NCBI GenBank assembly: GCA_963514005.1 | Contig: OY740804.1 | Location: forward strand, 37,386,001 to 37,450,000 | Source: Raja brachyura | Taxonomy: Eukaryota | Direction: 5' to 3' | DNA length: 64,000 bases | In this document: one piece after another, positions 18,793-63,189 of the stretch | Layout of the letters: every line of letters starts with the position of its first letter | How positions within the stretch are numbered: the first letter of the stretch is position 1 | Notes under the pieces: generated by a model | The model's database searches: none | Seen by the model: the letters and a program-made list of their open reading frames with translations, nothing else | Told to the model about the DNA's origin: nothing | Translations under genes and position numbers: made by a program

Positions 18793-18887
18793 CTGAAGAA
18801 GGGTCTCGACCCGAAACGTCGCCTATCTCCTTCGCTCCTTAGATGCTGCTGCACCCGCTGAGTTTCTCCAGCTTTTGTGTAACCCCC
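18793..18887 (+). mobile_element. Minimal Penelope-derived insertion starting at a hammerhead-like core
   Basis: CTGAAGA-A-GGGT(CTCG)ACCC-GAAA-CGTC at 18793-18820; TSD GAGAGATGAAGACTG at 18781-95 and 18888-902. Confidence 0.75.
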
Positions 18888-26476: not shown

Positions 26477-26538
26477 ATTTCATTTCGGAGTCACGTGAGT
26501 GACTTCGTGAAGAGCCCGCCGGCGCGCATGCTCGACAT
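26477..26538 (+). repeat. DIRS left inverted terminal repeat
   Basis: ATTTCATTTCGGAGTCACGTGAGTGACTTCGTGAAGAGCCCGCCGGCGCGCATGCTCGACAT is an imperfect reverse complement of 31536-31597. Confidence 0.9.
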
Positions 26539-26675
26539 ATCGTATATCGCGTTGCTGCGACGGCTGGCGGTGGAGCGCGCTCCTCGCCAGCCCTTCATAA
26601 GGGAACCACTGAGGTAAGTATCCTACCTTAAGTTGGTGGTCCTTGTTGTGTTACTTTGTGTTTTGCAGCAAGGAC

Positions 26676-28401: not shown

Positions 28402-28444
28402 CCACGGAGGTGAGGCGGTCTGGTTCTCTCTTTTCTCTTTGTCT

Positions 28445-30190
28445 AACCTCACATGTTGGTGGGCGCCTTCGGTTCTTTTTGGGTGCATGGGGTGATGAGT
28501 ATGTGTTACAAAATATTCAGGGTCATAAAATTGAGTTTCTTAATGGGGACATTCCTCCATCCCATTATTCACTCGACCCAAGAAGGATGGAGGCTGTCGA
28601 GTCATCATTGACCTGACTCGTTTAAATACTTTTGTAACATATACTCATTTCAAAATGGACACTTTTGAAACAGCCAAATCATTGATTTCACATGGTTGCT
28701 TTATGGCATGCATTGATTTACAAGATGCGTACTATACTGTGTCCATTCAAAAATGTTATAGGAGGTTTCTGAAATTTATCTGGATGGGTCAACTCTGGCA
28801 ATATAGGGCTTTGCCAAACGGGCTTACCACAGCCCCTAGATTATTCACTAAATTGGTGAAGCCAATTATGGCTTATTTACGACAACGACATCATATAGTA
28901 ATGGCCTATTTAGATGATATCTTAATTGTCAGCCACACCCTGGAATTGGCTCAACAGGGTGTTGCAGCTGCTGTCAATATATTTCAGCAGCTGGGGTTCA
29001 TTGTCCATCCAGCCAAATCAAAGTTTTGCCCCTCCCAGGTAATTCATTATCTGGGGTTTACGGTGGACTCTATTTACATGAGGGTCACCATACCAACTAA
29101 TAAGGTTGAGGAGGTCACCCAGGTGTGTCAAGGTTTAATCAGCGCTAGTATACCATCGATTCGACATACAGCTACAGTAATTGGCAAGCTTGTAGCATTG
29201 TTTCCGGCAGCCCGATATGGGCCTTTGCATTATCAGAATTTGCAAAGGGCCAAGATCGCTGCGTTAAGACAGCACGCTGGTCATTATGATCGACCAATGC
29301 AGCTGCCGCCCGAAGCGAAGGATGAGTTACGATGGTGGGTGCGTCACATTAGTAACTCATTTAAACCTATTATTGAGGCTAATCCGGTGGTATACTTGCA
29401 AACTGATGCGAGCTCTTATGGCTGGGGAGCTACGGATCATTACTCTAGTTGCGGGGGCAGATGGGATACCCTTGAGGCTACTATGTTGTTGTCTCAAGGG
29501 ATAAACTAATTGGAGCTACTTGCAGCATTCCACGGACTTCGTGCTTATTGTTCCAAGGTTTTTGGAGCACATGTCCGTCTCCAAATAGACAATACCACAG
29601 CGGTGGCTTATTTAAACCATATGGGCGGTACCAGGTCAGTTTCATGTGATAAATTGGCTAACTCAATTTGGCTCTGGTGTGTTCAAAGAGACATTTGGAT
29701 TTCGGCTACCTATTTGCCAGGTGAGCTTAATACTGTGGCGGACACCAGGTCACGCAAGTTTAATGACAATATTGAATGGATGTTGCATCCTGAAATTTTT
29801 GCCAAAGTTACAGCCAAATTTGGGAAACCGGATATTGACCTTTTTGCGTCACGGTTGAACCATCAGGTACCAACATACGTCTCGTGGGAACCAGATCCTG
29901 GGGCTATGGCGCTAGATGCATTCTCACTGGACTGGGGGAATTGGTTTTTCTATGCCTTCCCCCCGTTTTGCCTCATCAGTCGGGTATTACGAAAGATTCA
30001 GATGGATGCAGCCAAGGGCATCCTTATTATACCCGACTGGCCTACACAGCCGTGGTATCCGGTGGTCTTTGACATGCTCAGTGAGCCTTGGGTCCTTTTG
30101 AAGGGTTGCCCACAATTGGTTACTCGCCCTGTCTCAGGGGAGCCACATCCCTGCCATGGCTATTTAAATTTGTTGGCTTGCAGGTTTTGA
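28445..30190 (+). pseudogene. DIRS reverse transcriptase-RNase H-methyltransferase-like ORF (internal stop at 29507-29509, N-terminal deletion)
   Basis: PKKDGG.RVIIDL, IDLQDAY, LPNGL..APRLFTK, AYLDDIL; RNase H TDAS..GWG, IN*LEL.A, DNTTAV, NTVAD; MT-like DLFAS..YAFPPF..PDWPTQPWY. Confidence 0.9.
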
Positions 30191-30228
30191 ACAGGCCGTT
30201 AGTCCAATACGGCCTCTCAACTCGGACC

Positions 30229-31165
30229 ATGGATACCATTGGGGCGTCGTGTCGAGAGTCCACAAGGCGAAGATACCGCTCACATATCAAGAAGTGGGAA
30301 GCCTACTGCAGCCGCTCTCGCATCACGTACGATGACGTGACTATAACCTGTCCTGGAATTCCTCGCGGGGTTGCACCATGATGAACACTTAAGTTACAGT
30401 GCCATCAACAGCGCCAGGAGCGCGCTGTCATTCTACCTCAAGATTGAGGTGGGATCCAACAGGCTAGTGTCCAGACTCATGCGAGGTATATTCAATATGA
30501 ATCCGCCTACACTACGCTACAATATCACCTGGGATGTCAGGGACGTATTAACCCTGCTCAGGACGTGGTCTCCCATGGAAGGGCTCCAGCTAGACAAACT
30601 CATCATGAAGCTGGTGATGTTACTAGCGCTGACTTCAGCACAGAGGGTACAGACACTGCACAAACTACGTGTTGACAGAATGATGTCTACCCCTACAGAA
30701 GTAGTCTTCTTTGTTGATGAGCTACTAAAGCAGCATAGACCTGGGTGCACAGGGCTGCAGCTGAAGTTCCCGGCATACCCCGCAGATGCTAGGCTGTGTT
30801 TAGCCTCACATATCCGTCACTATGTCAAGGTGACGGCATGCATCAGAGGAATGGAGAGATACCTGCTTGTCACTCATAAGAGACCTCATCATCGAGTGAC
30901 AGTCCAGACGATATCCAGGTGGCTCCGGGTCGTCTTGGGTAAGTCAGGTATCGACACTAATGTGTTCAAGTCTCATTCCACCAGGGCTGCATCGACGTCA
31001 GCGGCGAGGATTATGGAGGTGCCTATGGACCATATTCTCGCCACAGCAGGATGGGCTAATGAAGCTGTGTTTCAGCGATTTTATAACAAGCCTGTTGCTG
31101 CTCCTCTACAGTTCGCGGAAGCCGTTCTGAATGCAGGTCAAGAACGTGGAGGTGTACCCGCATGA
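30229..31165 (+). pseudogene. DIRS tyrosine recombinase (frameshift near 30350)
   Basis: SYSAINSARSALS; catalytic R (SAQRVQ), HSTR, GW, Y (FQRFYNK). Confidence 0.9.
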
Positions 31166-31307
31166 GGGGTTTTGATTTGTTATTAATAAATATGCTCTTG
31201 TTTTGCAGTATGAACTATTTGAGCAAGTTTGTTCCTCCCATCCATCCCTGCTAGTGGTGTGTCAGCATGGACGTGGTCCAGGGCGTGTAATCACAGAAGC
31301 TTTGAAG

Positions 31308-31420
31308 TCTTCACGAAGTCACTCACGTGACTCCGAAATGAAATAGTAAGATTGAACGAGAACTTACCAGTTCGAAGGTTGATCGTTATTTCATGAGGAG
31401 TCGCGGTGAGTGATTTCGTG
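31308..31420 (+). repeat. DIRS internal complementary region (ICR)
   Basis: 31308-31344 is the reverse complement of the left terminus; 31345-31420 is the reverse complement of the right terminus (2 mismatches). Confidence 0.92.
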
Positions 31421-31640
31421 CCCTCCACGCCCAACCCTCAGTCACCTTCACCTGGTAATTTGAGTCTCTTTCATCTTACTATGCAAAGTCATTTCTGTTA
31501 CTGGTTTCTGTGATTCCACACCGCTACTTTGAAGAATGTCGAGCATGCGCGCCAGCGGGCTCTTCACGAAATCCCTCACCGTGACTCCTCATGAAATAAC
31601 GATCAACCTTCGAACTGGTAAGTTCTCGTTCAATCTTACT

Positions 31641-32130
31641 ATTCCTACTCTTTGCTTCCTGTCTGCCAACCAGTTCTCTATCCATGTCAATATCCTACCC
31701 CCAATACCATGTGCACTAATTTTACACGCTAATCTCTTGTGTGGGACCTTGTCAAAGGCTTTTTGAAAGTCCAGATACACCACATCCACTAGCTCGCCCT
31801 TATCCATTCTACTCGTTACATCCTCAAAAAATTCCAGAAGATTTGTCAAGCATGATTTCCCCTTCATAAATCTATGCTTACTCTGACCGATCCTGCCAGC
31901 ACTTTACAAATGCGCTGCTATCAAAAAAACTATCGTACCCTGTGCTCTTTATTATTAGCATGGCTGTGTGGCGACCACACATTGCACTGAACCAATTGGT
32001 ACATGTGACAAATAAATGTATTTTGTGTCTAACATCTTTAACAATCGACTCAAGCATCTTCCCCACTACAGATGTAAGGCTAACTGGTCTATAATTCCCC
32101 GTTTTATCTCTCCCTTCTTTCTTAAAACAT
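31641..32130 (-). mobile_element. CR1 LINE, upstream portion of the copy split by DIRS
   Basis: KGKSCLTNLLEFFE..DVVYLDFQKAFDKVPHKRL..WIENWLADRKQRVGI continues into 26476 and below. Confidence 0.9.
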
Positions 32131-32528: not shown

Positions 32529-32855
32529 GCAGTCATGGTGGCGCTGCGGTAGAGTTGCTGCCTTCCAGCGAATGCAGCGCCGGAGACCCGGGTTCGATCC
32601 CGATTACGGGTGCTGTCTGTACGGAGTTTGTACGTTCTCCCCGTGACCTGCGTGAGTTTTCTCCGGGATCTTTGGTTTCCTCCCACATTCCAAAGACGTA
32701 CAGGTTTGTATGTTAATTGGATTGGTAAAATGGAAAAATTGTCCCTAGAGGGTGTAGGATAGTGTTAATGTGCGGGGGTCGCCGGTTGGAGCGGACCCGG
32801 TGGGCCGAAGGGCCTGGTTCCGTGCTGTGTCTCTAAACTAATCTAAACTAAACTA
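32529..32855 (+). mobile_element. Full-length HE1/V-SINE-type SINE nested in CR1
   Basis: A box TGGCGCTGCGG, B box GGTTCGATCCC, V-domain, (CTAAA)n tail, TSD AACATC. Confidence 0.85.
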
Positions 32856-34704
32856 AACATCCTTCATAGAGCAAGGAGACCAAAACTGAACACAAATCTG
32901 CAAATGTGTGTCATTTTCCTAAAATGTACCTTTTCAACACTCTTGTTGTGAATACTCTCTGTCCTAATTTCAAACTACCTTGTTCTATTGACACCATCCA
33001 CCATTGATTATAAACTCATATCTTAATCTGGATACTTGTCTCATTCAATCCATCCTCTTAAAAACATTTAATTGGTTTGTTTTCCAATGATATCTTATTT
33101 GCTTTCTTGCCTGCCTCCCTTGTAACCATAAATTATTTTCTACTAATTGTATTGTGAAGGTAGTGCCTTCGCTCCCTGCATCTCAATTCATATCTGCAAT
33201 TGGAGTTTGTCTACAAATTCTGTATTCAATTGGGTAATTCTGTATTCAATTGGGTAATCAAAAAGCTGGAGTAACTCAGCGGGGACAGGCAGCATCTCTG
33301 GAGAGAAGGAATGGGTGACGTTTCGGGTCGAGACCCTTCTTCAGACATAATGTTATTGAGACAACGGCTGATCTCTGTATTCTTGAGGCAGCCACAGGCA
33401 GACGGCATTGCCAATAAAGAATTTCTACTAAAGGCCTGTGATCTGTAATCCAAAGTAAAATGTCTGCTGGTTGGAATTCAGGAAATGTTTTTGCTCCAAA
33501 GATATATTTCCTTACCTCTTCCTCTGGCTGAGCCTTTTTTTCCCATTTCTTGTGGCAAGGGTGAAGTATGTCTGCGATATAACCACTATTTGAGTTCCTT
33601 TACCAGCAACTATTACATGACCGATTGTAATTCGTAATCCATAATTTGAAATGTTATACGCAAGTTTCAATAAACATATTGTATCACAGCAAACTAACAA
33701 TGACTCATTGCCCTGCCTCCTTCTTACAATTGAGGTTTGTAGCACACAGCCGTACCATGGCTGGAATGACCTAAATATTGAATATTTCAGGTTACTGTTA
33801 TAATTGTTTATCAGTTTATCCGTTTAGTTTATTGTCACAAATTGTACAGTGAAAAGCTTTTGTTGCATGTTATCCAGTCAGCGGAAAGACAATAGATGAT
33901 TACAATCGAGTCATTTACAGTGTATGGATAAGAGATGTTGCTGTAGGAATAGAGATTTAAGGAGAGATTGTAATATGTGATTGTAGATCTGGCATGCAAA
34001 TAGTCGCCTTGGAAACACTTACACCTTTGATGTGTTTCAATCTATTTGTCCTTACTTTTAACATAAGATAAATTGCTTCCTTCTGCTTGATTTGCACATA
34101 CATGGTTTACATTTTGTTCGTGTGAAATATTTTTAATATTCAAAGATTTTCTTCTGTGGTCTTTATGCCAATTCGACATTCTCATTGGCAAAAGATTTAT
34201 ACCTTTAGCATTTGCTCACCATTGCTTATAAAATGTTCAGTGATGTTCTCACACCATAAGGTAGTTGTGTGCAGAAGAAAGGTAACGTGCATTCAGTGTC
34301 AAAGAGTCTCAATCAACAGAACCTATGATGTGACAGCTCCTGTCTGATCCTTGCAAAGGAAGCCACGAGTGTGCCTTGCTTTCATCATTGTTCAATACTT
34401 CCTTTTACTCATCAAAAAGTCTAAAAATTTTGTCTTTTTCAAGAACCACTTCAATTGGTGTCGACCAGTCACTCTTGCTTCTCCACACTAAAGCTTCCTT
34501 CTAATTTGTCTAACCCTTATTTCTTCAATACAGGTCAACAAGTCAAGGTTAACACTAGATTGGTTTTGCCCCTAGCTTGGTGCAAATATTGGCATATCCC
34601 CATGTAGATGTCTGGGGATGTTTCTGCGTACTTTGCTATCAGGCCCAAATATTATTATTTTTTAACCCATTCTAGTCAAACAACTCTTTCCAGTCCAGCT
34701 ACAA

Positions 34705-35014
34705 TAGTTTAGTTTACTTTAGGGATACAACATGGAAACAGACCCAAGCCCGCACCGACCAGCCGTCCTAGCAAATTAACACTATCCTACACACACTAGG
34801 GACAATTTCACTTTACGCAAAGCCAATTAACCTACAAACCTGTACGTCTTTGGAGTGTGGGAGGAAACCGGAGATCTCAGAGAAAACCGACGTGGTCATG
34901 GGGAGAACGTACAAATTCAGTACGGATAGCACCCATAGTCGGGATTGAACCCAGGTCGCTGATGCTGTAATCGCTGTAAAGCAGCAATTCTACCGCTGCG
35001 CCACCGTGCTGCCC
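34705..35014 (-). mobile_element. HE1/V-SINE-type SINE
   Basis: Reverse complement of the 32529 family. Confidence 0.8.
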
Positions 35015-35113
35015 TAAGACAGTCTTTACCCAACTGGGTCTCCGACTAAGTCCTGAGGCAGCCTTTACCCAACAGTGTTGCTTGATGTGCGTCTATGTAA
35101 TTACATGTAAATA

Positions 35114-35272
35114 CATCACAGCAAGGAATGTGGAGGAGTCACTGTGGTGGATGTTTATGTTAAAATGTATTGTGTTCTGTTGCTTTTTTATTGGTATGAC
35201 TGTACGGCAAATGAAATTCCTCGGATGTTGCAAAACATACCTGGCTAATGAAATATTATTGTGATTGTGATT
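35114..35272 (+). mobile_element. 3' fragment of the hairpin-bearing non-autonomous family (Rex1-type tail)
   Basis: CATCACAG..TCACTGTGGTGGATGTTTATGTT box followed by AAATTCCTC..ATACCTGGCTAAT. Confidence 0.65.
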
Positions 35273-36295
35273 TGTGTGCACTGGCGCAGGAATTCTCCTG
35301 ACTGCCGCACCCAGCGTTAATTCTGTTTGCCGACTATTGTGGCTCAACAGCCTTTGGTACGTTCTCTGAATATATTTACAGACATAGTTAGACAAAGTGT
35401 TGTTTTAAGTACTTTACCTTCGCAGCAGTTGAGTGTACTTAGCTGAAGTGTTTTCCCATAATTGCGTGATATACCACCATTTCAATGTCTTGTTTAGGTG
35501 ATTTGCTTCCCACTGTTGCTGCTGATTCCATCTATGTCAAATAAGATCAATTTGCCATTGTTCTCAGAAGGTTCAAAACGACAGGTTTTCTCTCTGTGAG
35601 TTTTTACTGTGAAAACTTCCCATCTGTGAAGAAATCACACTATGGAAATTGCTTTGATTAACTAGCCTGGCTTTAGACTTGCCTGCTGGGGAAAGGTGGC
35701 CTTTCCTTCCGAGAATTAAAACAATTTTGCCATTTTAAACCAGAACACTTGTGAAAGATTGCTCCCATGAATCTATAAAGCAATTTGTGTCAGTCTTACC
35801 CACCTGCTTCAGGTTTTGGTTTGGAACTCCACTTTCCCAATGAGAGTAATCATGTATCCTGCATTGGACAACATTACTTCACTTTTCTAAGCCACAGTTG
35901 CCAACAGCATCAAATGTGAGATTAATGTTTAACAACTGGTTTACTAATACATGTTTAATAACTGATTTATTTCACTCATTGATCAAACTACACTTGGTTT
36001 ACCTGTCACAGAGCACAGTCAGGAATGTCAGATCTTTTAGTCGGGTAATGTGCCCAATAACATTCAACACCAGTCAGGAGTCTGAAGAAGGGTCTCGACC
36101 TGAAACATTACCTATTCCCTGTCTCCAGAGATGCTGTCTGACCCGCTGAGTTACTCCAGCCTTTTGTATCTATCTTCGGCTTAAACCAGCGTCTGCAGCT
36201 CCTTCCTGCACTGCGATCATATCTGACTTATTATTCCTATTTGCAAAGCTATCGTTTCCATAAATGCTGAACATTTAGTATGGGATTATTATAAC

Positions 36296-36652
36296 TGTAC
36301 ACTGCAAAGGCCAGGAAGCGAGCGGGTAAGATCAACTCTGACCCCACTCACCCTGGCCACAAACTCTTTGAATCACTTCCCTCTGGAAGGGGACTCCAGA
36401 CTGTCAAAGCTGCCACAGCCAGACATAAAAACAGCTTTTTTTTCCATGAGCAGTAGCTCTACTCAACAGCCAAAAGTCTGTGGCCTCCTTTAACTCTGGT
36501 ATTTTATTTCATTCTTCACGTTTAAATTATATTGTTTTATTTTTAATTGTCTACTGTATATCGTGTTGTTACCTGCGAGCAAAGCACCAAGGCAAATTCC
36601 TTGTATATGTACATACTTGGCTAATAAAATGTGTTCAATTCAATTCAGTTCA
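36296..36652 (+). mobile_element. Rex1-like 3' fragment
   Basis: DPTHPGHKLFESLPSGR.L..; tail GCAAATTCCTTGTAT..ATACTTGGCTAATAAA-(TTCAA)n. Confidence 0.75.
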
Positions 36653-37223
36653 ATAGCACTTTCTTAAATTAAATCTCATGCGCTTTCCACAGCAAAGAAA
36701 CAGTGTACACTTCTAATCACATTTAAGTTGGAGGAATAACTGTTTCTCTACTGTATTCCTGCTGCCACATTCTCATCACCAGCATCAATTTCCACTGCAT
36801 AATTTGCATTTTCATGTGATCTATGTATGAACTGAAAGGTTCACACGGCAGTTGCACACACTATGGCTTCCTTTACGACCAGCTTGTATCTGAACAACCA
36901 TTTTATCTTCTTCTCCTGAAGCCATTCCTCCTACAGCAAACGTTGACATATCAGTGTAGTTGGCTTCACGCCTATCTAAAGTGTGTTTAGTGTAACGGCT
37001 GCCTTTGACTCATTCGACCAACTGCGACACCATTAACAATGTAATTCTCACTGGACCTGCCAGGGCACCCACGCACACTTAAGCATGCATAGACTCTGCC
37101 CTGGCCATACTGCATCTGCCCCACATTTCTCCATACCAGCTGTGCCAGTCACTGCCGGAGACACTCTCATGCCTCTGTACTTGTCAATACTCACAGTTAT
37201 CCTCTACTATGATAACACTGTAA

Positions 37224-37532
37224 TGGGCCTGTCCCACTTACGCAACTTTTTCGGCGACTGCCAGCACCTGACGCAGGTCACCGAAAATTTTCAATATGTT
37301 GAAAATCCAGCGGCGACCAGAAAGATGCTACGACTCTTTGGGCGACTGATGGAGGCTACTCACGACCGTACAGCCGACACCCTGGTGAAGCCTGTGAGTA
37401 GCTGCCCAAAGAGCCGTACCTTGTTCTGGTCGCCGCTGGATTTTCAACATGTTGAAAATTTTCGGTGACCTGCAACAACCTATGACGGGTGCCAGAAGTC
37501 GCTGGAAATTTTGTGTAAGTGGGACAGGCCCA
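37224..37532. mobile_element. PIF/Harbinger-type MITE
   Basis: TIRs TGGGCCTGTCCCACTTAC / GTAAGTGGGACAGGCCCA; whole element quasi-palindromic; TAA/TTA flanks. Confidence 0.85.
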
Positions 37533-37657
37533 TTAGTGTTTCAAGTGGCAATTGTGGGCAATTGTGTACATTATAGTACTGACGGCTCAAGTGTAAGTCA
37601 GCTTCTTTTTACCTCTATCTTCAAGCTAGGTATGTATGTTGGCTACCATCCTGACCA

Positions 37658-38379
37658 CCAGGGGCGCCGGGGAGATGGCAGCCCTGTCGGCAGTCTGTTC
37701 GTTTTGTCATCTTTTTGTTATTTTTAGCGTTTGTTTTAATGTACTTCGGTTTGTTTTATGTGGGGGAAGGGGAGAGGGGATTGGGGGAAGCCTTTTTTCA
37801 AGTTTCTACCTTCCCAGAGATGTGATCAATTCTCCGGATCACATTCTCCGGGCTCTGGGGCCTACCATCGCTGGAGCTGGAAGCCTCCTCGGACTGTCGT
37901 GAGCCCCACCGCGGGGCGCGGACTTAACATCGGAGCGGATCCCTTGCCTGAGATCACTCCCACCGCGGCCGGCGGACTTACCATCCAGAGCTCCAACGCC
38001 GATGAAGGTTCGACCAGCCCCGACGGGAGGTTCGATCGCCCGGCGCGGGGGAGCTGACAACCCCCCGATGTAGGAGCTGATCGCCTCGACGTGGAGGGCC
38101 CCAATGCCGCCGGCTACGGGAGTCAAGACCGTCCCGTCAACGGAGGCTCGAGGCCCCCGACCGAGGAAGAACAAAAGGAAGGACTTGAAGTTTATTTTGC
38201 CTTCCATCACAGTGAGGAGTGTGAAGGAGTCACTGTGGTGGATGTTCATGTTAAATGTGTTTTTGAGTCTGTTGCTTTTAATTGGATGACTGACCTGGCC
38301 AGTGAAAATCCTCATATGTTGCCAAATATACTTGGCGAATAAAATCTGATTCTGATTCAGATTTTGATTCTGATTCTGA
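37658..38379 (+). mobile_element. GC-rich non-autonomous (bipartite) retroelement with Rex1-type tail
   Basis: 5' end shared with 4241; hairpin 38203-38242; tail ..ATACTTGGCGAATAAA-(TTCTGA)n. Confidence 0.7.
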
Positions 38380-39041
38380 TATCAATGTCGCTAATATTGT
38401 GAATGCTTCTGTCACTGGTTCAATCCATGTAATGTAGGTAGTATCAAGAGCCACGGAGCGACAAGGAGATAGACACAAAATGTTGAAGTTCCTAGGATAG
38501 AGGACTCTAAAATCGGAGGGCGTAGGCTTAACTTGAGAGGAGAGACATTAATGAGGGACCTCAGGGGAAACTCACTCAGAGAGGTAGTCTGCAACTGGCA
38601 TGAGTTCCCAGAGGAAGTAGAAGCAGGTGCAATTATGACTTTTAAAAGACATTTGTACAGATGTATGGATAGGAAAGGTTTAGAGGGCTATGGGCCAAAT
38701 GCAGGCAAATGTGACTCAGTCAATATGCCAATTTATTTGTAATGGGTTTCCTGCAGGGCCAAAGGGCCTGTTTCCGTGCTGTAAATGACTCTAAATCTTT
38801 AGTATTGATCTGAGAGTAAATGACTGCTTGGATTTAAGTATTTAATCTAAACGATGACACACTCAGAGAACTATACTAGAGTGATCGTCCCGTTTATGAC
38901 CAGAGATCTGTGGACAAGCTCTGGAACCTGCAACCTAATACCTCACAGGTTGGAGAGGCTCGCACTGAACCGCGCAGAGACAAATGGTGTGGACCTTCTG
39001 ACCTCTATTTGGGATTCTGTTGTGTGAAGAGTGTACTCTTC

Positions 39042-39592
<551 letters not shown>

Positions 39593-40519
39593 TGAAAGAG
39601 ACGCCTTGGTGTTATATAGATTCATAGAGTTATACAGTGTGGAAACAGGCACTTTGGCCCAACTTGCCCACACTAGCCAACATGTCCCAGCTACACAGGT
39701 TCCACCTGCTTGCGTTTGGTCCATATCCCTCCAAAGTTGTCCTATCCATGTTGGTGGTGTATGGCACAGACCATATGCAGATACAATCTGTTTTAACTCA
39801 AATACACCAGATAGATCAACAGGGGAGAGACAAAATGCAGAATATAGTCCGCACTATCGTAAAGCACTGTAGCGCATCAGTTCCTGGGACAAAGTCCAAT
39901 GTCCTCAATGTGATGAAGGTGAATCGAACAGTACCCTATCTTATAGAATCCATTGTCAATTCACTGTGATCTAAGATGGGAATGAACTAAACTAAAACTA
40001 AACTAAAATCGGTATAGAGGGGGCACTAAGAATCTTATATGGGATGAGTTTGCAGTTCGCAAACTCTGGTGAAACATTTATTGAGTTGTCTAATTAGGCT
40101 TGGGGGAAATACTGTTCTTTTTGTCCACAAGTTAATTCTGTGAAACATTGTACTTTATGATCTCAGCCTGCATTGCCCCATTTCAGCTGCCATATTTCTG
40201 GAACCCTTGGGTGCAAGGATCTGATTGGAAAGAATTGCAGATTTTCCATTCTGCTTTGTAGCCGATGCATCACTCGAGTATTTTTTCCCAAACAAATGGG
40301 TGCCACTGTCTCTACATATTAGCGTGCAGGAAGTCTGGATCCCGTTTGGGTGCAAACCCTAATCTATGGAAATATCTAATGGGTACAGGGGAGGATTGCA
40401 TAACACCTCTCCATTAGATTTCCGATCAAATGGACTTTGATCATACATTTAGGAGGTTAACTTGTTATGCACGAGTTGATCATGTCAGATCACTTTGTCA
40501 GCTGTGGTATGGTTGGTTA

Positions 40520-41682
40520 CATTGAGTCATAGAATCATACAACATGGAAACAGATCCTTCGGCTCAGTTTGCCCATGTCAACGAAGGTGCACCAATCCAC
40601 CTACCCACGATTGGCCCATATCCCTCTGAACTTTTCCTATCCATGTATTCTGTCTCAACTGTTTCCTCTCGCAGGCAGCTCATTTCATATACCCACCGCC
40701 CTCTGTGTGAAAATGTTGCCCCCTCAGATTCCTATTAAATCTTTCCCCTTAAATTTTAAACCTATGTGCACTGGCACTTTATTCCCATACACTGGGTAAA
40801 AGATTCTGTGCATGTACCTTATCTATTCCCCTCAAGATTTTATGCACCTCTTTAATATCACCCTCATCCTCCGGCGCTTCACGGAATCAAGACCTAGTCT
40901 GCCTAACCTCACCCTCTAGCTCAGGCCTCCCAGTCCTGTCAACATCCTTGTACATTTTCACTGCACCCTTTCCAGCTTAACCATGTCTTTCCTATAACAG
41001 GGTGACCAAAACTGAACATAGTACTTCAACTGTGGCGTCTCCAGCATCTTGTGTAGCTGTAACTTAACATCCCAACTTCTACACTTCATATTCTGAGTGA
41101 TGAAGGTCAATGTGCCAAAAGCCTTCTTGACCACCTTTATCTACCCGTGACGCCACGTTCAAGAAACTCTGTACTTGCACTCCTGGACCGCTCTGCTCCA
41201 CAGCATTCCCCAGATTCTTTCCATTTACTGTGAAGATTCTGTCCCAGTTAGACTTCTCAAAATGCAATACATGGGAAGAAACTCCATCTCATCCTCTCTC
41301 TTTTCTCCGCTGTCACGCTGTGAAAGCAGAGAGGATGAGACAGAGTTTCTTCCCACAGGCCATCAGGACTGTAAGCTCTTATCTCACCAGGGACTCATTT
41401 ATGTACCAATATACTGTTATGTTGTGTCTTTTTTAATTTTTTGTTTTTTTTCTAACATGTAAATAATGATTCTGTTCTATTCTGTTCTGTAGTTTTTGCA
41501 CAATCCACCGGCATTGCCACTTTCATTCCACTGCACATGTTGTATGTGTATGTGACAAATAAAGTTGACTTGATCTGCAATAACCTCCAATAACCATTCT
41601 TCTGCCCACTTGCCCAACTGATCAAGATCCTGGTTGATCAAGATGAAGATAACCATCTTCACTATCCACAATTCCACCAATA
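40520..41682 (-). mobile_element. Degenerate CR1 3' region with a nested Rex1-like tail (about 41330-41572, +)
   Basis: CR1 RT remnants (DLDQLGKWAEEW) and 3'UTR; nested SFFPQAIR motif with TGACAAATAAA tail. Confidence 0.65.
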
Positions 41683-41758
41683 GCCTTGGGGGCCATGGGT
41701 GAATAGGTGAGAGGTGACGCTGGGTTCCACTCTCATGGTGGTGCTTTCTCTTTCATTG

Positions 41759-43236
<1,478 letters not shown>

Positions 43237-43707
43237 TAATATTCAAACACCATCAGGGTGTCTGTCGCCTCACCCTTTGTTCCTCCTGCAGCCGGGTAAA
43301 CCTACAAGATCTCTGCGACCCTCTACCATTGGCCTTAAGTGCATTCCTGATTTTAATCCTCCTGCTTTTGCCACCTTTAGCTCCCTTGGCTCTGACCTGG
43401 AATTTTTGTGGTAAACTCCTCAGCCACATATTCTCTTCCATTAAGCATTTGGAATCTAGCCTCTCAAACTTGCAATCAGTTCCACAGTTCTTGGCCTGGA
43501 ACTGATACTCGGGTCTGATCGAGATGGGACGTGCTTCCATACATTTAGGTGTTACCATTTTTGGGCTGTGAAATCACAAGAGAAGTGTTCTGATTCTGAT
43601 GAGAATGAGAAAGAAAATTCAATCCCAGATTCCTGAATCATGGAAAAGGTTCTTATCTTTGAGCATGTCCATTAAAATAGTTCCATTGCAGATTAAGTGA
43701 AATATTA

Positions 43708-43931
43708 CAAGGTCGACAAAACTGCTGGAGAAACTCAGCGGGTGAGGCAGCATCTATGGAGCGAAGGGATAGGTGATGTTTTGGGTCGAGACCCTTCTTC
43801 AGACTGAAGAAGGGTCTCGACCTGAAACGTCACCTATTCCTTCGCGCCATAGATGCTGCCTCACCCGCTGAGTTTCTCCAGCATTTTTGTCTACTTTGGA
43901 TTTTTACAGCATCTGCAGTTCCTTCTTAAAC
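43708..43931. mobile_element. Palindromic Penelope-derived insertion
   Basis: About 95-bp arms meeting at CTTCTTCAG-A-CTGAAGAAG (centre near 43803). Confidence 0.85.
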
Positions 43932-44939
43932 GAGTGCAATTTTATGAAAAGACCCAATGCCCGTTTTACTCTTCATCTTAATTCTTAGACGGGTCTTATA
44001 ATTGGTGTATAGCTCCATGCTTTTATGCTCAATGGACAAAGGCAGCTTTAGCCATTTTCATGGGATGATTTCAAATTTCTCCATGGGATGAGTTATGGTG
44101 TAGGACATCCAATGGGAAACTGGTCTTCCTTGAGTTTAATAATATCTGTCTCGGCCAAAGGAGGGACATTCATCAATCCTGCCCATGCCCTTTTAAAGTT
44201 ATGATGATGGAGAAGGAACAGCTCCAGGGAAATTTCCAGCCGATGCACAAAATACCGTGAGGCTCGTATTCTGATGGCATGATTTGGTTGCTTCATTTTG
44301 CTGCATATCAGATTTGGATGAATGAATCTGCACATGAATCGATATCTCTGGGTCTGACATTTCAATATACAGTCGAGGGTTGAGAACACAAAACTCGGGT
44401 TGACACTCGTAGTGCAGCCCTGATGGACTGCTCTGCTAACTGAGTCATAGAGTTACAAATGTTAGAAATAGTTGGACACAAGGAACTGAAGTTGCTGGAA
44501 CCTGGAGCAAAGCACAGAGTGCTGGAGTACCTCAGTTGGTCAGGCAGCATCTCCCAGGGAATGATGGGAGATGTTTCAGGTCAGGATCCTTGTTCAGACT
44601 GATTGTAGAAGAGGGAGAAAGCTGGTAAAGATGTGGGGACGGGACAAAGCCTGGCAGGTGATGGGTGGATGCAGATGCGGGGAATTGATTGGTGGACAAA
44701 GACTTGGGATGATAAGAAGTTACTGTAAATGTCTGTTAGATTAGGCGAGAAGAGGAATGACATGTAAACCCAAGGAGGGGATATAGGTGGAAGGGAATGG
44801 TGGAGGGGGTGGGGGAGTGGGTGTGGGGTGGGGGGGGGGGGCAGAATAATGGGAGAAATGGGTGGACAGTGAGGGGGGTGGAGGGTGGGGTGGTGGTACA
44901 GGAATGAGAGAGGGGACCTTTCTCGAGACCACCTACTTG

Positions 44940-45598
44940 AGACTACGTCTTCTGTGGACAAATACTTCATCGTACAAGTTTACAACCATACCTTGGAGTT
45001 CATCTTGATAGCAAGCTTTCGTGGGGACAACATGGTCACTAAAGGCACGAGGATTCCTTGGACGAATCCTCTGGTCTGCCTAAAGGAAGTGAAAACCACA
45101 GCAAATACAACATTAGTTAGACCGTTACTGGAATACGATTCATGCGCCTGGGATCCACACAAGACTGGCCATATCAACAAACTAGAAGGGGTACACAGGA
45201 AAGCAGCACGCGTTTGCATCGGGAACTACAATAGAGGTGGCAGTGTCACCCAGATGCTATCTGACCTGGAGGGGGAATCGCTGGATACAAGAAGGGCAAG
45301 GAACAGACTAGCCATGTTGTACAAGATTCAAAAGGGGATCATGGGCATAACTGCAGATAGATACGTAACGTACTCAACTCAAAAGAACAAGAAATAGAAA
45401 TGATATGCAAATAGAAACCCCATTCGTCAGGACAGATATTTATAATTCTTCGTAAGGGAATGGAATAAACTAGACAACAATATAGTCAAATCACCTTCAC
45501 TAGACAGTTTTAAGGGGGCAATAACAGCACGTTAGTATGCACAACACATCCAAGTTGGCATTATGCAGAGAACTGCCCTGCCGACTACAAATACAGAA
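44940..45598 (+). mobile_element. Divergent CR1-group LINE 3' fragment
   Basis: LVRPLLEYDSCAWDPH....LEGVHRKAARV....Y....SVTQML.DL....L..RR...RL.MLYKI; nested within a Penelope fragment. Confidence 0.7.
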
Positions 45599-47069
45599 GG
45601 TTCAAAAGGGGAAGGAGGGATGTTATTTAAAATTGGAGAATTTAATGTTCTTATCAAAGATAGACACAATATGCTGGGGTAACGCAGCGGGACAGGCAGT
45701 ATCTCTGGATAGAAGGAATGGGTTATGTTTCGGGTGGAAATCCTTCTTCAGGCTGTTCACATAGTTGGCTTATTAGCGACCCAAATGGAATATGAGGTGC
45801 TGTTCCTCTAGTTGTCACAATAATTGCTTGAGACGTTCAACGTGTAAAAAAATGGCATGATGTTATTTGATACGCATTCTCCCAGCTAACAAACCTCTCG
45901 CAACCCACATTGGCAACAGCGGGTTGAGTGACAACCGTAGGGGTGGCCGTGCACTTTGTACAGCCCACCAGCAGAACCACAATGATTGGATTCCAAAGTA
46001 GCTTTTGTTTGGGAGCTGATTTGGAAAGTCACAGTTGATGTAATGCATAGGTTAGACCGCACAAGGTATTGCTGGTTGTCACACTATTGGGAGGATGTGA
46101 TTACACTGGAAAGAGTCGAAAGGAGATTCACTAGGATGGTGCTTGGTAGTTTACTAACAAGATTGAATAAAGCTGGAGTGAAGGAAGCTGCAGGGGGACC
46201 TATGATATGTAAAACTATGAGAGGCACAGATAGTCAGGTACGAATCAATCCACACAGTAATGCACCTTTGTTGCGCACTAACCAGTCAGCAGAAAGACAA
46301 TATGTGATTAGAATCGAGCCACCCACAGTGTGCAGATACATGAGAGAGGGATTAACATGAATAATATTTAGACCAAGATAATGCCAGTGAACTCTAATCA
46401 AATATAGTCCGAGGGTCTCCAATGAGGTAGATAGTAGTTCAGGGCTGCTCTAGTTGTGGTAGGATGGTTCAGTTGCCTGGTAACAGCTGGGATGAAACTC
46501 TGGATGTGTGCATTTTCACACTTCTATACCTTTCGCTCGATGGGAGAGGGGAGAAGAGGGTGTGGCCAGGGTGCGACTCGTCATTGATTATGCTGCTGGC
46601 CTTACTGAGGCAGCGTGAGAGACATTTAATAGACATTTAGACAGGCCCTTACACAGACTAGGCATTGAAGGATATGGAGAGCTGGCAAATGGGATTTGTG
46701 TGGGTGGGCAAAAGCTCATCATGGATGTGATAGGAATGAAGGGCCAAATTCTGTGCTGTAACACTCATCCACCTTTAATCCCGCTAAGACATTTCCTGCC
46801 TCCTTTTTAATAATAACACATTCTCGAATTTCACCATGCACTTCCCTGAATACCACTTTGCCAACCAGCAAGAAAATGGTTAAGTGTGGGCGTGTCCAGG
46901 TGATCATCAGTTCTGAGTGCAATAATGTCCTTGAAAATATGCTGAGGCTCGTTATGAATGTATTAATGTAGTGAGACTGGTTCCACCAAGATGCAGTCCA
47001 AAACACCACAGGAGATCCTTCTTCCCTGCGGCTATCAAACTGTACAACTCTTCCCCTTCTGCGTTGGGG

Positions 47070-47497
47070 TAGTGGGCAGAAATCCTGGGGGACACGCCCC
47101 CCCCCCCCCCCCCTGCTTTGAGAGGTGGGGGGGTCAATCTCCCCCATGTTTTTTAATCCGGACTTTATCAGACACTTTCTAAAGGCTGAATCGGCTCGTT
47201 CACGGTACCTTTCAGCGCCCCGCGCGGCTTAAAATCAAACTGCTGAATCGAGGCGATCGAGGCGATCGAGGCTCCCGACGTTGAAGTCCCCGCGGGCCGA
47301 TTAAAGGCCCCGCGAACGGGCCGATTCAAGGCCCACGATTTGGGGCGGACAAAGCTGCTATTGCTGAAGTTCGGAGTCGATCACCAACCAGGTCAGCTCC
47401 CGATGTTACCGTCCACAGGCCCACGGCCGAAGCCTCACGCGCGCCCGCCAAGAAACTGTGTCACCCCCATGTTTTGATAGCGATTTTGTGCTTGTGT
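47070..47497. mobile_element. Possible degenerate non-autonomous DNA transposon
   Basis: CpG-rich island with weak terminal inverted similarity (GCAGAAATC / GATTTTGTGC) and repeated CCCCCATGTTTT. Confidence 0.35.
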
Positions 47498-48063
47498 AGA
47501 CTGACTCCTAGATTAAATCCTGACCTCCTGTGCTTTTTGCTTGGAGTTTGCACACTCTCCCTGTTACCACATGGGTCGCTGTGGTTTCCACATCCCAAAG
47601 ACAAGCTGGTTGGTAGATTCATTGGCTCATTCAATTAGCCCAAGTATGTGGAAGGTTATTAAAACCGGAGTGAGTGGTTGGAAATGTGGGGAGAATGCCA
47701 TGTGATTAACGTCTACAAATGGGTGTTTGATTGTTGGTGCGGACTCAGTGAGCCAAACTTTCTGTTTCTATGGCAAAGCTGTCTGAAGAAGGGTCTCGGC
47801 TTGAAACGCCACCCATCCCTTCTCTCCAGATATGCTGCCTGTCCCGCTGAGGTACCCCAGCATTTTGTGTTCTATCTTTGATGCAAACCAGCACTTGCAG
47901 TTCCTTCCTACACATGCCATTTTTTAATTGTTGTAATTGGATGTCAATTAGCTATGTGGGCAACTCTAGAGGTTGTAGTTCCATGGAGGTTTTGTAGAAT
48001 AGTGTTTCATTTACTGGATTGAAATTCATTTGCATGGACCATTGATCTGGAGACATAGATTTG

Positions 48064-48348
48064 TGGGCAGCACAGTGGCGTAGCGGTAGAGTTTCTGCCT
48101 TACAGCACCAGAGGCCAGGCTCGATCCTGACTACGGGTTCTGTCTGCATTGAGTTTGTACATTCTCCCTGTGACCACGTGGGTTTTCTTTGGGTGCTCCG
48201 GTTTCCTCCCATTCTCCAAAGACGTACAGGTTTGTGGGTTAATTGGCTTCTGTAAATTGTCCCGAGTGTGTTGGATCATGCCATGTGTGGGATGACCACT
48301 GGTCAGCGTGGACTCGGTTTCCACACTGTTTCTCTGAAGTCTAAAGTT
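48064..48348 (+). mobile_element. HE1/V-SINE-type SINE
   Basis: A box TGGCGTAGCGG, B-box-like GCTCGATCC, V-domain core. Confidence 0.8.
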
Positions 48349-48417
48349 AATTCAGATCTTACCTTGTCTGTCGAGGGATTTAAATGAATCTGGAATGAAA
48401 AAAGCAACTAACAGTAT

Positions 48418-49270
48418 TGATACAATACAATACAATACCGTTTATTGTCATTTGAACCTCATTGAGGTTCAAACGAAATTTAGTTTCTGCAGTCATAAAA
48501 ACAAGAAAAGAACCAAGGTACAACACAATTTACACAAACATCCATCACAGTGAATCTCCTCCTCACTGTGATGGAAGGCAAAGTCGTATCTCTCCCCTGA
48601 TCTCCCCATTCTCCTCCCGAGATCAGAGTCAAAGTCCCCGGCGGGCGATGTTAAATAAGTCCCGTGGCCATTTAGGCCGCGCCGGGCGATGCAAGGCCGT
48701 GCTCCGGGTCTTGATGCTTGAGCCCCCAGCGGACGCATACAAGTCCCGCAGCCATTAAAGCCATGCCGGTCGATGTAAAGCCCCGCTACGGGTCATCTCG
48801 GGCGGGAGAAGTTGCCGCCACGGGAGCTCCGAAAAGCGGTCTCCCACCAGGGACCCGCGAGCTCCCGGTGTTACCGTCCACCGGCCTGCAGCTGGAGCCT
48901 CCGAATCTCCGGGGTCGGGAAGCAGCAGCGCACCACCACAGCTCCTCCCGTTCCGAACTCGGCCAGCTCCACGATGGTGAGTAGCCTGCAGCTCCGCGAC
49001 TGGAGCCCCAGGTCCGGTTGGAGGCCGCTCCACGGTGCAAGGCCCCAACGACAACGGAGACCCAGCAGAGAAAAGGTCGGGTCCTCCGTACAGGGAAAAG
49101 TTTTTAAAAGTTTCCCCCACCCCCCCACCCTCCCCCCACACCCCCACCCTCCCCCCACACACATACCCAGCTTAAAAAAACACTATAACTAAACTCAAAC
49201 AAGACAAAAAATTTAAAAAATGACAGACGGACTGCAGAGGCCGCTGCGATGAGAGTCGCGCCGCCCACCA
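48418..49270 (-). mobile_element. GC-rich non-autonomous (bipartite) retroelement with a second Rex1-type tail
   Basis: Perfect 13-bp hairpin at 48541-48575; tail AAATTTCGTTTGAAC..ATGACAATAAA-(TATTG)n. Confidence 0.7.
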
Positions 49271-49660
49271 GAACGATGACGATGAAATGACTCCATTGTA
49301 AAAATCTACTGGGTGCACCAATATCTTTCAGTGAAAGAAGTCCTTCATCCTTACTCAGTGTGGCCAAATGTCATTCCAGAACCATCAATGTAGTTGATTC
49401 TTAAATACCTTCTCAATTCAAGGCAAGCAAGGCTGATGTCAGTGATGCCCATATCTTGTATATGAATAAAGAAGTGAGAGAGTGTGGCAGGCTACCAATT
49501 AGATGTCATTACCTGATTCTCACTCCAGGGTGTCTGACAAAGCTATATGTTATATGTGCAAACTATGACACTGAATATTAGCAGGGATAATCTTTATAGA
49601 TTTGATAATCTTGATAACCTTGGGATGCCACGGCAGCACAGTGGTAGAGTTGCTGCCTAA

Positions 49661-49949: not shown

Positions 49950-50247
49950 TTAAAGTGCTTGCAGCACCAGAGACTCGGGTTCGATTCCGACTATGCGTGC
50001 TGTTTGTACGTTCTCCCTGTGACCGTGTGGGTTTTCTCCGAGATCTTCGGTTTCCTCCCACACTTCAAAGACGTACAGGTATGTAGGTAAAATTGGCTTG
50101 GTGTACGTGTAATTTATCACTTGTGTGTGTAGGGTAGAGTTAGTCTGCGGGGATTATAGGTCGGTGAGGACTTGGTGAGCAGAAGGGCATGTTTCCGCGC
50201 TGTGCACCAAAATCATCATGTCCTCCCTTCCTTACAAGAGTAATTTA

Positions 50248-51446
50248 TAGTGGCTTGCAAAAGTTTTCATACCCCTTGAACTTTTCCACATTTTGTCACG
50301 TTACAACCACAAACGTAAATGTATTTTATTGGGATTTTATGTGATAGACCAACACAAAGTAGTGCATAATTGTGAAGTGGAAGGAAAATGATACATGGTT
50401 TTCAAATGTTTTTACAAATAAAAAACTGAAAAGTGTGGCGTGCAAAAGTATTCAGCCCCCTCTGGAGGAGTTGCAGAGATCCACAGCTCAGGTGGGAGAA
50501 TCTGTCCACAGGACAACTATTAGTCATGCACTCCACAAATCGGGCTTTATGGAAGAGTGGCAAGAAGAAAGCCATTGTTGAAACAAAGCCATAAGAAGTC
50601 CTGTTTGCAGTTTGCCACAAGCCATGTGGGGGACACAGCAAACATGTGGAGGAAGGTGCTCTGGTCTGATGAGACCAAAATTGCAGTTTTTGGCCTAAAT
50701 GCAAAACGCTATGTATGGCAGAAAACTAACATTGCACATCACCCTGAACACACCATCCCCACTGTGAAACATGGTGGTGGCAGCATCATGCTGTGGGGAT
50801 GCTTTTCTTCAGCAGGGACAGGGAAGCTGGTCAGAGTTGATGGGAAGATGGATGGAGCCATATACAGGGCAATCTTGGAAGAAAACCTGTTAGAATCTGC
50901 AAAAGACTTGAGACTGGGGCGGAGGTTCACCTTCCAGCAGGACAACGACCCTAAACATACAGCCAGAGCTACAATGGAATGGTTTAGATCAAAGCATATT
51001 CATGTGTTAGAATGGCCCAGTCGAAGTCCAGACCTAAATCCAATTGAGAATCAGGACTTGAAAATTGAAGTTCACAAACGCTCTCCATCCAATCTGACTG
51101 AGCTTGAGCTATTTTGCAAAGAAGAATGGGCAAAAATTTCAGTCTCTAGATGTGCAAAGCTGGTAGAGACATACGCCAAAAGACTTGCAGCTGTAATTGC
51201 AGCGAAAGGTGGTTCTACAAAGTATTGACTCAGGGGGGCTGAACACTTTTGAACGCCACACTTTTCAGTTTTTTATTTGTAATAAAATTTGGAAACCATG
51301 TATCATTTTCCTTCCACTTCACAATTATGCACCACTTTGTGTTGGTCTATCACATAAAATCCCAATAAAATACATTTATGTTTGTGGTTGTAATGTGACA
51401 AAATGTGGAAAAGTTCAAGGGGTATGAAAACTTTTGCAAGCCACTG
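50248..51446 (+). mobile_element. Tc1/mariner DNA transposon with about 210-bp IR/DR-type TIRs, internally deleted
   Basis: TA TSD (50246-47, 51447-48); TIRs 50248-50460 and about 51232-51446. Confidence 0.93.
50461..51228 (+). pseudogene. Tc1 DD34E transposase remnant (N-terminus deleted, frameshift near 50545)
   Basis: [42 protein letters not shown] (34 residues between D and E), KGGSTKY. Confidence 0.92.
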
Positions 51447-52053
51447 TAGATAGCTCTACCACCTCACATAACTGGCTTTATTGCCTGTGGAACTCATTTA
51501 CCACCCGGGACCATTATGCAGGGTGCCAGGACCATTCCTTCCTGTTGAAATAAAAATATTGTATTCCGCTGATTACATTTGACAATAGACAGGAGTGCAG
51601 GAGTAGACCATTCGGCCCTTCGAATCAGCACTGCCATTCACTGTGATCGTGGCTGATCATCCACATTCAGTACCCCGTTCCTGCCTTCTCACCATATCCT
51701 CTGACTCTGCTATCTTTAAGAGCTCTATTTAACTCTCTCTTGAAAGCATCCAGAGAATCGGCCTCCACTGCCTTCTGCGGCAGAGAATTCCACAGATTCA
51801 CAACTCTCTGGGTGTAAAAGTTTTTCCTCGTCTCTGTTCTAAATGGCCTATAATTTGAGCATGCATCACATACTGCTCGCCCATCACCCTGTATCATTGA
51901 CCCACATTGTCTTTAAATCCAGCAACACGTCCCAATTAAATCCTGTGCTTTTCAAAATCGTCCATGAAGAGCATTACAACAGGATCTAGGTCAGGTGGTC
52001 CAAGGAATGGCAAATGGAATCCAACTCTGACAAAAGGGAAGTGTTGCATTGTG

Positions 52054-55935: not shown

Positions 55936-56723
55936 TGACCGTGAGCCCTTGGTGCATGTTCATACATCACAAAGTATCCTCAGCCTTTGATAGTGTTGAC
56001 TATTCCACCCTCTCCCAGTGGCTCTCGGCCATTGTCTCACCAGATGAGATGGGCTTCATTCCCAACTCTCGTAAGAATTATGTTTCCCAACAATCTATCC
56101 TTTATCTCCTCCTAGTCATCCTCTCACCACCATTACCCAAAAATACATTAGATCCTCGTCCACTGACAATTGGTCTCTACAGCATGATCACCTTCTGCCT
56201 CCCCCTATATTGTCTTCCCATCCAACATCCCATCCCTCGTACAAACAGAAGTTTCATCTGGTGACATATAGTGATAGAGTGACTGAGAGCGGAAACAGGC
56301 CCTTCAGCCCAACTTGCCCACACCAGCCAACATGTCCCAGCCGCACTGGTCATATGAGACAAGTTGTAAGTGATAGGAGCGGAATTAGGCCATTCAGCCC
56401 GTCGTCTACTCAGCCATTCAATCATCGCTGATCTATCTCTTCCTCCTAACCCCATTCTCCTGCCTTCTCCCGATAACCTCTGACACCTGAACTAATCAAA
56501 AAATTCCTGCCCGCATTTAATCCATATACCTCCAAATCTGTCATATCCATTGTCCAACCAGATGAGATGGGCTTCTTTCCCAACTCTCGTAAGAATTATG
56601 TTTCCCAACAATCTATCCTTTATCTCCTCCTAGTCATCCTAGTCATGTACCTGTCTAACTATTTCTTAAACGTTAGGATAGTCCCTGCCTCAACTGCCTC
56701 TTCTGGCAGCTTGTTCCATACAC

Positions 56724-62771: not shown

Positions 62772-63078
62772 TCGCATGGTGGTGTAGTGGTAGAGCTACT
62801 GTCTTACTGCTTGTCTGTACGAAGTTTGTACGTTCTCCCCATGACCTGCGTGGGTTTTCTCCGGGTGCTCCGGTTTCCTCCCACACTCCAAAGACATACA
62901 GGTTTGTAGGTTAATTGGCTTGGTATAATTGCAAATTGTCCCTAGTGTGTGTAGGATAGTGATAATGTCCAGGGATCGCTGGTCGGTGCTGACTCGGTGG
63001 GCCGAAGGGCCTGTTTCCACGCTGTATCTTCAAACTAAACTAAACTAAACTAAACTAAACTAAACTAAACTAAACTAA
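62772..63078 (+). mobile_element. HE1/V-SINE-type SINE with expanded (CTAAA)n tail
   Basis: Family core plus about 9 CTAAA units ending at 63078. Confidence 0.8.
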
Positions 63079-63189
63079 AGTCTTGTCTTTTTGGTGGCTG
63101 CCTCGGCATTGAAGAGGACCTGCTTCCACTCTGGTTTTGTAGGTTCTGGGGTGACCAACGAGGACAGTTTGGGAAAAGCTGATTCTTCA

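Follow-up and report, generated by a model that had tools for sequence, protein, structure and literature searches.

A 64,000-nucleotide stretch of the Raja brachyura assembly GCA_963514005.1 (contig OY740804.1, forward-strand positions 37,386,001 to 37,450,000; 'the window' in what follows, to which all coordinates refer) consists of repeat-rich vertebrate DNA, its repeat content resembling that of a skate or ray, with fragments of long interspersed nuclear elements (LINEs), V-SINE-like repeats (SINE, short interspersed nuclear element) and DIRS-like and Tc1-like elements. Amongst these sit four non-coding repeats (Table 1) that place one RNA hairpin ahead of three different LINE-type tails, and which are likely to represent a single family of parasitic retroelements that switches its LINE enzyme. 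Drawing on the window sequence, on protein searches and on published papers, we confirm that a repeat family with a shared hairpin and differing LINE-type tails is real, and that the outline offered by an earlier note on this DNA is largely right.

Exactly four sites in the window carry the hairpin, and these coincide with the copies listed in that note (at 35114, 37658-38379, 41759-42534 and, on the reverse strand, 48418-49270), with the start of copy A now moved to ~37647 and copy C found to hold a 396-bp insertion that is probably a solo long terminal repeat. The elements run from a GC-rich start through a T-rich tract, a G-run, a CpG-rich body (CpG observed/expected 0.9-1.0, against 0.5 for the window; built of degenerate sub-repeats in copy A) and a purine spacer to the hairpin, which a GU-rich linker of 60-70 bases separates from the tail. 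The linker of C matches those of the 35114 copy (0/500 shuffles) and of B (2/500). Compared with 174 LINE-related proteins, the bodies gave no match at E <= 1e-3, and no Pfam domain was found in any of the eight frames scanned.

Table 1. Positions of the family's copies and their parts, and of the LINE 3' ends that share their tail types (ORF, open reading frame; UTR, untranslated region)
Feature	Position	Strand	Remarks
Full-length copy A, 734 nt	37647-38380	+	ends in (TCTGAT)n
Truncated type A copy	35114-35272	+	broken inside hairpin 5' arm
Full-length copy B, ~860 nt	48418-49277	-	tail type B at 48482-48441, ends in (TATTG)n
Copy C, upstream part, GC-rich	41759-41925	+	marginal similarity to A body
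396-bp insertion splitting copy C	41926-42321	.	TG...CA ends, 4/5 flank bases duplicated
Copy C, 3' part	42322-42535	+	hairpin, linker, L2-like tail from ~42457
Head-only fifth copy	4233-4504	+	74% identical to first third of A, same start
Candidate 5'-truncated copy	31921-32029	+	109 bases: linker and fourth tail type
Hairpin of A	38203-38242	+	13 bp, one U-G, between GCCTT and GAYGTT boxes
Hairpin of B	48575-48541	-	13 perfect pairs
Hairpin of C	42334-42373	+	16 pairs, G-U included
G-quadruplex motif, head of A	37762-37787		same head position in all three
G-quadruplex motif, head of 4233 copy	4360-4382
G-quadruplex motif, head of B	49156-49114
Tail type A with terminal repeat (Rex1-like)	38305-38380	+	0/500 shuffles against 36590, 61121, 11727
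LINE 3' end, ORF2 C-terminal remnant, tail type A	36295-36654	+	Rex1-like group
UTR-only ends, tail type A	61105-61168, 11703-11776	-, -
LINE 3' end, ORF2 C-terminus, tail type B	15991-16433	+	Rex1-like group
LINE 3' end, ORF2 C-terminus (PF09004), tail type B	7740-8459	-	Rex1-like group
LINE 3' end, tail type C	326-1002	+	second group, L2-like

Hairpins of at least 12 bp, with G-U pairs allowed, number 36 in the window; three have a flanking box and the same three, namely A, B and C, have both, with their stems paired as first described. The GCCTT and GAYGTT boxes had been attributed to every copy, which holds for these three; at 35114 the truncation falls within the 5' arm, and the GCCTT box is lost with it. 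A and B, whose hairpins are 89% identical, were the only input to a covariance model that recovers both remaining sites, at 35105-35172 (E 2e-8, 42 bits) and at 42328-42389 in C (E 0.004, a rough value; 22 bits), its best match outside the family being a 25-base segment at E 0.41, antisense strands of the stems aside. Folding z-scores against 200 shuffles are -2.0 for A (3/200), -4.7 for B (0/200) and -3.2 for C (4/200); the partial 35114 copy, the hairpin remnant of which carries C-A/A-C mismatches, folds at chance level (89/200). Rfam returned nothing for the hairpin at its gathering threshold.

Some candidates were rejected. A look-alike at 39399-39440 scores E 5.5 with the covariance model and folds no better than its shuffles (79/200). 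Weak tblastn matches (best E 0.17) suggested that the hairpin region might be a decayed Rex1-like ORF2 C-terminus, and a profile of 120 homologous segments ranks it 10th among non-LINE chunks (E 7.8). Lowering the Rfam threshold to E <= 10 over 35000-49400 gave five weak matches, none relevant, one of which overlaps B at E 7 and is taken as chance. At 3300-3720 on the reverse strand, a repeat that is GC-rich, ends in a Rex1-like tail and seems not to code for protein has neither body similarity nor hairpin, and is not of the family. Membership of the candidate at 31921-32029 is uncertain: it sits within a CR1-like fragment, lacks the hairpin and reaches nhmmer E 0.54, and its linker, in a candidate chosen after the fact, is identical to that of the 35114 copy at 29/42 positions (0/300 shuffles; among 12 control UTRs none gave 0, the nearest scoring 3/300). 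Separately, the first bases of the truncated copy recur, inverted and imperfectly (71%), in the flank upstream of it (35078-35128), much as if the sequence had folded back where it is truncated, within the hairpin arm.

The heads of A and B are homologous (z 14.5) from about the point at which the 4233 copy starts, and the 5' end of the family is fixed in all three; this common start means that A and B are not randomly truncated pieces of a long UTR, and each has 550-700 non-coding bases between its fixed 5' end and the hairpin. Whilst the 5' end can be placed in this way, target-site duplications, the other insertion hallmark raised in the earlier note, were found for no copy. Its statement that no tRNA-like head is evident holds: ARAGORN reports none, and neither an A box nor a B box occurs in the three heads, which together with six runs of four or more T in each (within ~215 bases) makes RNA polymerase III (pol III) transcription unlikely. 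The window's V-SINE-like heads, serving as controls, have an A box in 4/4 cases and a B box in 1/4, and are also missed by both ARAGORN and Rfam, the latter giving nothing for the heads at its gathering threshold; BLAST found no match between the element and these repeats.

Three of the window's 13 G-quadruplex motifs lie in the family's heads. A hammerhead core is absent from the seven segments scanned for it (17 matches elsewhere in the window), and no ribozyme resembling that of hepatitis delta virus was found with an ad hoc descriptor lacking a positive control, nor any Rfam ribozyme match. The head-only copy is cut off at 4504 by a near-identical local duplication (4505-4638 / 6103-6240, 96%). 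The V-SINE-like copies, which we take to be HE1-like, have A-box heads and CR1-type tails, and include those at 32529-32850, 34705-35014 (reverse strand), 39045-39346 and 62812-63079.

Tails and their LINE partners

Compared with 12 other 3' ends in the window (500 shuffles each), both A tails match those at 36590, 61121 and 11727 (0-1/500), tail B matches 16372 and 7760 (0/500), and tail C matches 940 (0/500; 46/64 identical), with next-best scores of 7 and 9/500. Tails of unlike type do not match each other (99-336/500) and the matrix is block-diagonal; the claim that types A, B and C each match their own LINE ends, and not the other element tails, is thus upheld. The matches hold at the level of type and not of family: tail B shares with the LINE ends just the flanks of its stem-loop, the stem interiors being different, and the terminal microsatellites vary within one tail type.

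For the ORF2 ends at 7760, 16372 and 36590, relatives of the 7760 protein are matched in each case and relatives of the 940 protein in none. These protein sets (12 and 14 near-full-length proteins, from 120 and 54) have a median identity of 26% and are separated with full support in a quick tree; we take them to be Rex1 and L2, respectively, on the strength of C-terminal and tail motifs. By these comparisons, A and B represent sub-types of a single clade, and C alone crosses between clades. The earlier note had argued for a modular parasite that recruits LINEs across clades. The shared hairpin and differing LINE tails of that proposal stand; with tails A and B drawn from one LINE group, its cross-clade step is carried by copy C and is the weaker part.

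How, then, is copy C to be read? Were the family real with several Rex1-like tails, C could be a one-off chimera, or could hold a short L2 3' fragment lodged in the AT-rich linker of an old copy, in which case no subfamily would be propagating by means of L2. The copy is single and old enough to hold the 396-bp insertion; and whereas in A and B the distance from the box to the start of the tail is 61-64 bases, in C a B-like remnant of the junction lies at +68 and the L2-like tail runs from +86, leaving ~18 extra bases between the two, with a 6-base AT-rich repeat on both sides of the tail. LINEs of this group also leave little or no target duplication (there is none at the 31.9 kb insertion), so that its absence is weak evidence. 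However, the L2-like tail begins where a Rex1-like tail would, the old tail is entirely gone, and the hairpin of C has compensated changes of its own, which point to a separate master lineage; we consider a one-off origin unlikely.

Potential partners appear to be many, with at least three further Rex1-like tail types in the window (2655-2715, 17815-17870, 41505-41570 and, on the reverse strand, 33825-33870 and 20020-20050), each with a motif, a stem-loop-like segment and a short repeat. An L2-like ORF2 C-terminus at 440-781 on the forward strand shares 85% identity with a protein of Gadus morhua and 64% with one of Amblyraja radiata, and the Rex1-like end at 7917-8459 on the reverse strand is up to 74% identical to database relatives that are mostly teleost where named. 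For a ray or skate host these similarities suggest horizontal transfer of the LINEs, and the 85% identity to Gadus morhua would fit the frequent transfer of Rex1 and L2 between rays and teleosts described in PMC13343379.

Pairing in the hairpin

Between the hairpin arms of B and C, 10 of 26 positions differ and yet all 13 pairs are kept, three of them by double change and four as G-U. In a neutral simulation of this comparison all pairs were retained in 29-882 of 200000 trials, or in 69-1606 of 200000 once the two CpG-type changes were left out (8 changes). At the inner dinucleotide step, A and B have TG/CA, C has TG/TG and the 35114 copy has CA/CA. The U-G pair of A is common to both A copies, and was therefore already present in their master; this, and the better folding of C on the sense strand (-23.6 versus -17.9 kcal/mol antisense), favour a role in the RNA. 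Of the compensatory change with wobbles that the earlier note described, the pairing is borne out (10 substitutions, three compensatory), and two of the wobbles fit CpG decay instead. Resting as it does on three lineages, with caveats over CpG sites and homopolymers, we regard the covariation as suggestive but not proven.

It might instead be supposed that the hairpin persists as a palindrome in the DNA, maintained through gene conversion or fold-back repair, and that no function in RNA is under selection. B is indeed a perfect inverted repeat that folds nearly equally on both strands (-21.6 versus -20.1), its tail stem is likewise a perfect palindrome, and the wobbles could be explained as CpG and transition decay. 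That the master of the A copies had the U-G pair, that C has four G-U pairs and no mismatch, and that the single-stranded flanking boxes are asymmetrically conserved all speak against this, and we judge it quite unlikely.

On balance, we favour a non-autonomous, non-pol III retroelement family that exchanges LINE tails around a paired hairpin, and hold this to be reasonably probable. A number of points weigh against it. One C-run/G-run, which one event of slippage or fold-back repair could create, holds two of the three compensatory changes together with two wobbles; the inner two G-U pairs of C and the mismatches of the 35114 copy are as expected from CpG decay, so that those two wobbles do not count as evidence; and the simulation takes no account of the copies having been picked for a hairpin. 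The linker of full-length A has no significant similarity to that of B (128/500) or C (216/500), and the upstream part of C scores 6/300 against A and, with no similarity, 83/300 against B. Tail types B and C are represented by one copy each, which leaves room for a one-off chimera; tail B also scores on other Rex1-like ends (~2700 at 0/500, 3340 and 31990 at 4/500); and tail matches of ~70-76% stop short of naming the exact partner families. Finally, no copy was found beyond the window, whether among spurious translations, by a word search with the sense frame across the hairpin (one candidate, no match) and by HMMER with a 180-residue antisense frame (0 of 1.84 billion), or by scanning bacterial and archaeal genomes for the hairpin pattern in stray host DNA (0).

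Known relatives and a possible mechanism

The elements could also be viewed as internally deleted LINE derivatives (bipartite elements, or SIDEs, which are short internally deleted elements), with a head from a Rex1 5' UTR, a hairpin from the UTRs of LINEs outside the window and no swapping of tails, each type having descended from, or diverged together with, a LINE of its own. A head of RNA polymerase II (pol II) type in which A and B boxes are lacking is what SIDEs have (PMC6740152), a common architecture (motif, stem-loop, AATAAA, microsatellite) is found in tails A and B, and a GC-rich piece resembling the B body stands antisense after a Rex1-like ORF2 end at ~47 kb. The window contains neither a LINE 5' end nor a full-length LINE of these groups. 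Yet the hairpin is in none of the window's seven ORF2-linked LINE 3' ends with a UTR, it precedes tails of LINE groups with ~26% ORF2 identity, and its 89% identity between A and B is far above the relatedness of the tail donors, whose ORF2 ends are 43-51% identical over 35 residues. This account is, to our minds, very unlikely, although it is the absence of swapping alone that is disfavoured; a head derived from a LINE 5' UTR would fit a family that exchanges its tails. The GC-rich piece itself (47140-47460; z 15 with the B body) directly follows the ORF2 end at 46960-47070, has a 12-base direct repeat at its flanks, and may bear on the origin of the body. Two simpler notions raised in the earlier note, of a hairpin that is merely part of autonomous LINE 3' UTRs and of tails that are separate adjacent insertions, find no support in the window, where the hairpin lies in no LINE 3' end and downstream of no ORF2 C-terminus, and where the tails are flanked by duplications of at most 5-6 bases.

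For a family exchanging tails around a hairpin, the closest parallels are the CORE, V, Deu, Meta and UCON3 SINEs, in which a conserved internal segment is combined with tails from different LINE clades, the explanation given being template switching or an exchange of modules (PMC4824008, PMC11481361, PMC5499810, PMC7245038). RSg-1 is of Rex1 type. Fish CORE-SINEs have either RSg-1 tails (Hpa I) or L2 tails (AFC, UnaSINE) (PMC3747384), and it is established that SINE superfamilies exchange their tails while conserving a core (PMC4824008, PMC5786205, PMC11481361, PMC5499810, PMC7245038). The principle is therefore not new, and the most striking step seen here, from a Rex1-like to an L2-like tail, is that of one copy; where the elements differ is in a head that is not of pol III type and in having a hairpin as their core. 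The elements share with SINEs a 3' tail homologous to a LINE 3' end, a terminal short tandem repeat and, among four copies only, an internal domain common to different tails. They fall outside the SINEs because they have no pol III head: there is no tRNA, 5S or 7SL part and no A or B box, T-runs that would stop pol III are present and the length is 730-860 nt. Unlike SINE domains, which we compared by description, their conserved part is a hairpin near the tail in which pairing is kept rather than sequence.

With bipartite LINEs and SIDEs (RIME, RTESINE, R2 SIDE, Persaeus) the family shares a 5' end that is fixed and a lack of both coding capacity and a pol III promoter, as well as a LINE-derived 3' end and presumed pol II transcription (PMC5786205, PMC6740152). 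SIDEs take both ends from one LINE, whereas these tails come from different LINEs: because the heads of A and B are homologous and their tails differ, derivation of both ends from the same LINE fails for the pair, and may hold for one of them. Sources of ORF-less bipartite elements are given as RTE, Ingi, Vingi and R2 only in PMC5786205 (2018), to which PMC6740152 adds CR1-Zenon; a Rex1-sourced element was seen in neither, in the text consulted.

There is likeness, too, to SINE-like elements whose heads are GC-rich or unknown, namely the avian AviRTE SINEs, WALLSI1/1A and CoeG-SINE, which retropose with a non-tRNA or unexplained 5' part (PMC5786205). Copies of CoeG-SINE exceed 1 kb (PMC4255032); it is called a tRNA-SINE, and no LINE-like 3' end was detected for it. 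The AviRTE SINEs and WALLSI1/1A differ in being RTE-dependent, and none of the three, as described, combines a hairpin core with both Rex1-like and L2-like tails. We found no account of the present family, and none of its three hairpin motifs, in the open literature searched (Repbase, Dfam, subscription journals and supplements lying outside that scope), and it is quite possible that a repeat library already has an entry for it. We presume, as a lead only, that similar elements with further Rex1-type tails occur in skate assemblies.

As to how such a family might work, we suggest that the element most likely gives rise to a putative pol II transcript, which a stringent LINE ORF2 would mobilise in trans by reading the stem-loop of the tail, much as zebrafish L2 elements read their own (PMC4176376). 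New tails would be gained at the boundary between linker and tail, where the sequence changes abruptly and at a similar distance from the hairpin in the different copies, by template switching during reverse transcription, the route proposed for tail change in SINEs (PMC4824008), or by recombination; one such change may have occurred between two Rex1-like sub-lineages, and one from a Rex1-like to an L2-like partner. As each tail has its own stem-loop, the hairpin would not be the site recognised by the reverse transcriptase. We speculate that it is probably kept for an action in the RNA, be it stability or assembly of a ribonucleoprotein, and perhaps pausing of the reverse transcriptase near the switch point. 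New partners may come from LINEs that horizontal transfer has newly brought in. Taken to its furthest, this would make the family an undescribed superfamily, neither SINE nor SIDE, of pol II-transcribed elements with a G-quadruplex, a covarying hairpin and interchangeable tails, tracking incoming teleost Rex1 and L2 LINEs; this we offer tentatively, and with more doubt than belief.

The reason why a central domain persists in SINE superfamilies as they change LINE partners is called unresolved in PMC4824008 and PMC5499810. A family conserving a single short hairpin, of which natural compensatory variants exist, would make this question about domains testable, by disruption and rescue of the stem, and if the superfamily reading were true, a small structured core of directly testable function would be at hand, which is unachieved for the conserved SINE domains. 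Through the family, partner switching would also reach elements that have no pol III head, Rex1 would join the LINEs supporting such elements and, for a ray or skate host, there would be a link to the high Rex1 load and the frequent Rex1/L2 transfer between rays and teleosts that are reported (PMC13343379). Its interest lies mainly with specialists in mobile elements and repeat annotation.

Other repeats in the window

A young DIRS-like element with split terminal repeats (26477-31643) is inserted in a CR1-like fragment; its frames we take to be gag-like, reverse transcriptase/RNase H and tyrosine-recombinase-like. At 50237-51457 lies a Tc1-like DNA transposon with 224-bp inverted repeats (94.6% identical) and a transposase frame at 50524-51228. 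Abundant short repeats with a minimal hammerhead-like core, often in inverted pairs and presumably of Penelope-like origin, are found at, for example, 11109-11365, 18790-18880, 33259-33346 and 43709-43931. There is a near-identical local duplication at 56029-56122 / 56547-56640 (97%). A long imperfect inverted repeat at a Rex1-like ORF2 end (41263-41361), with a weak microRNA-family score below threshold, is probably a 5' inversion.

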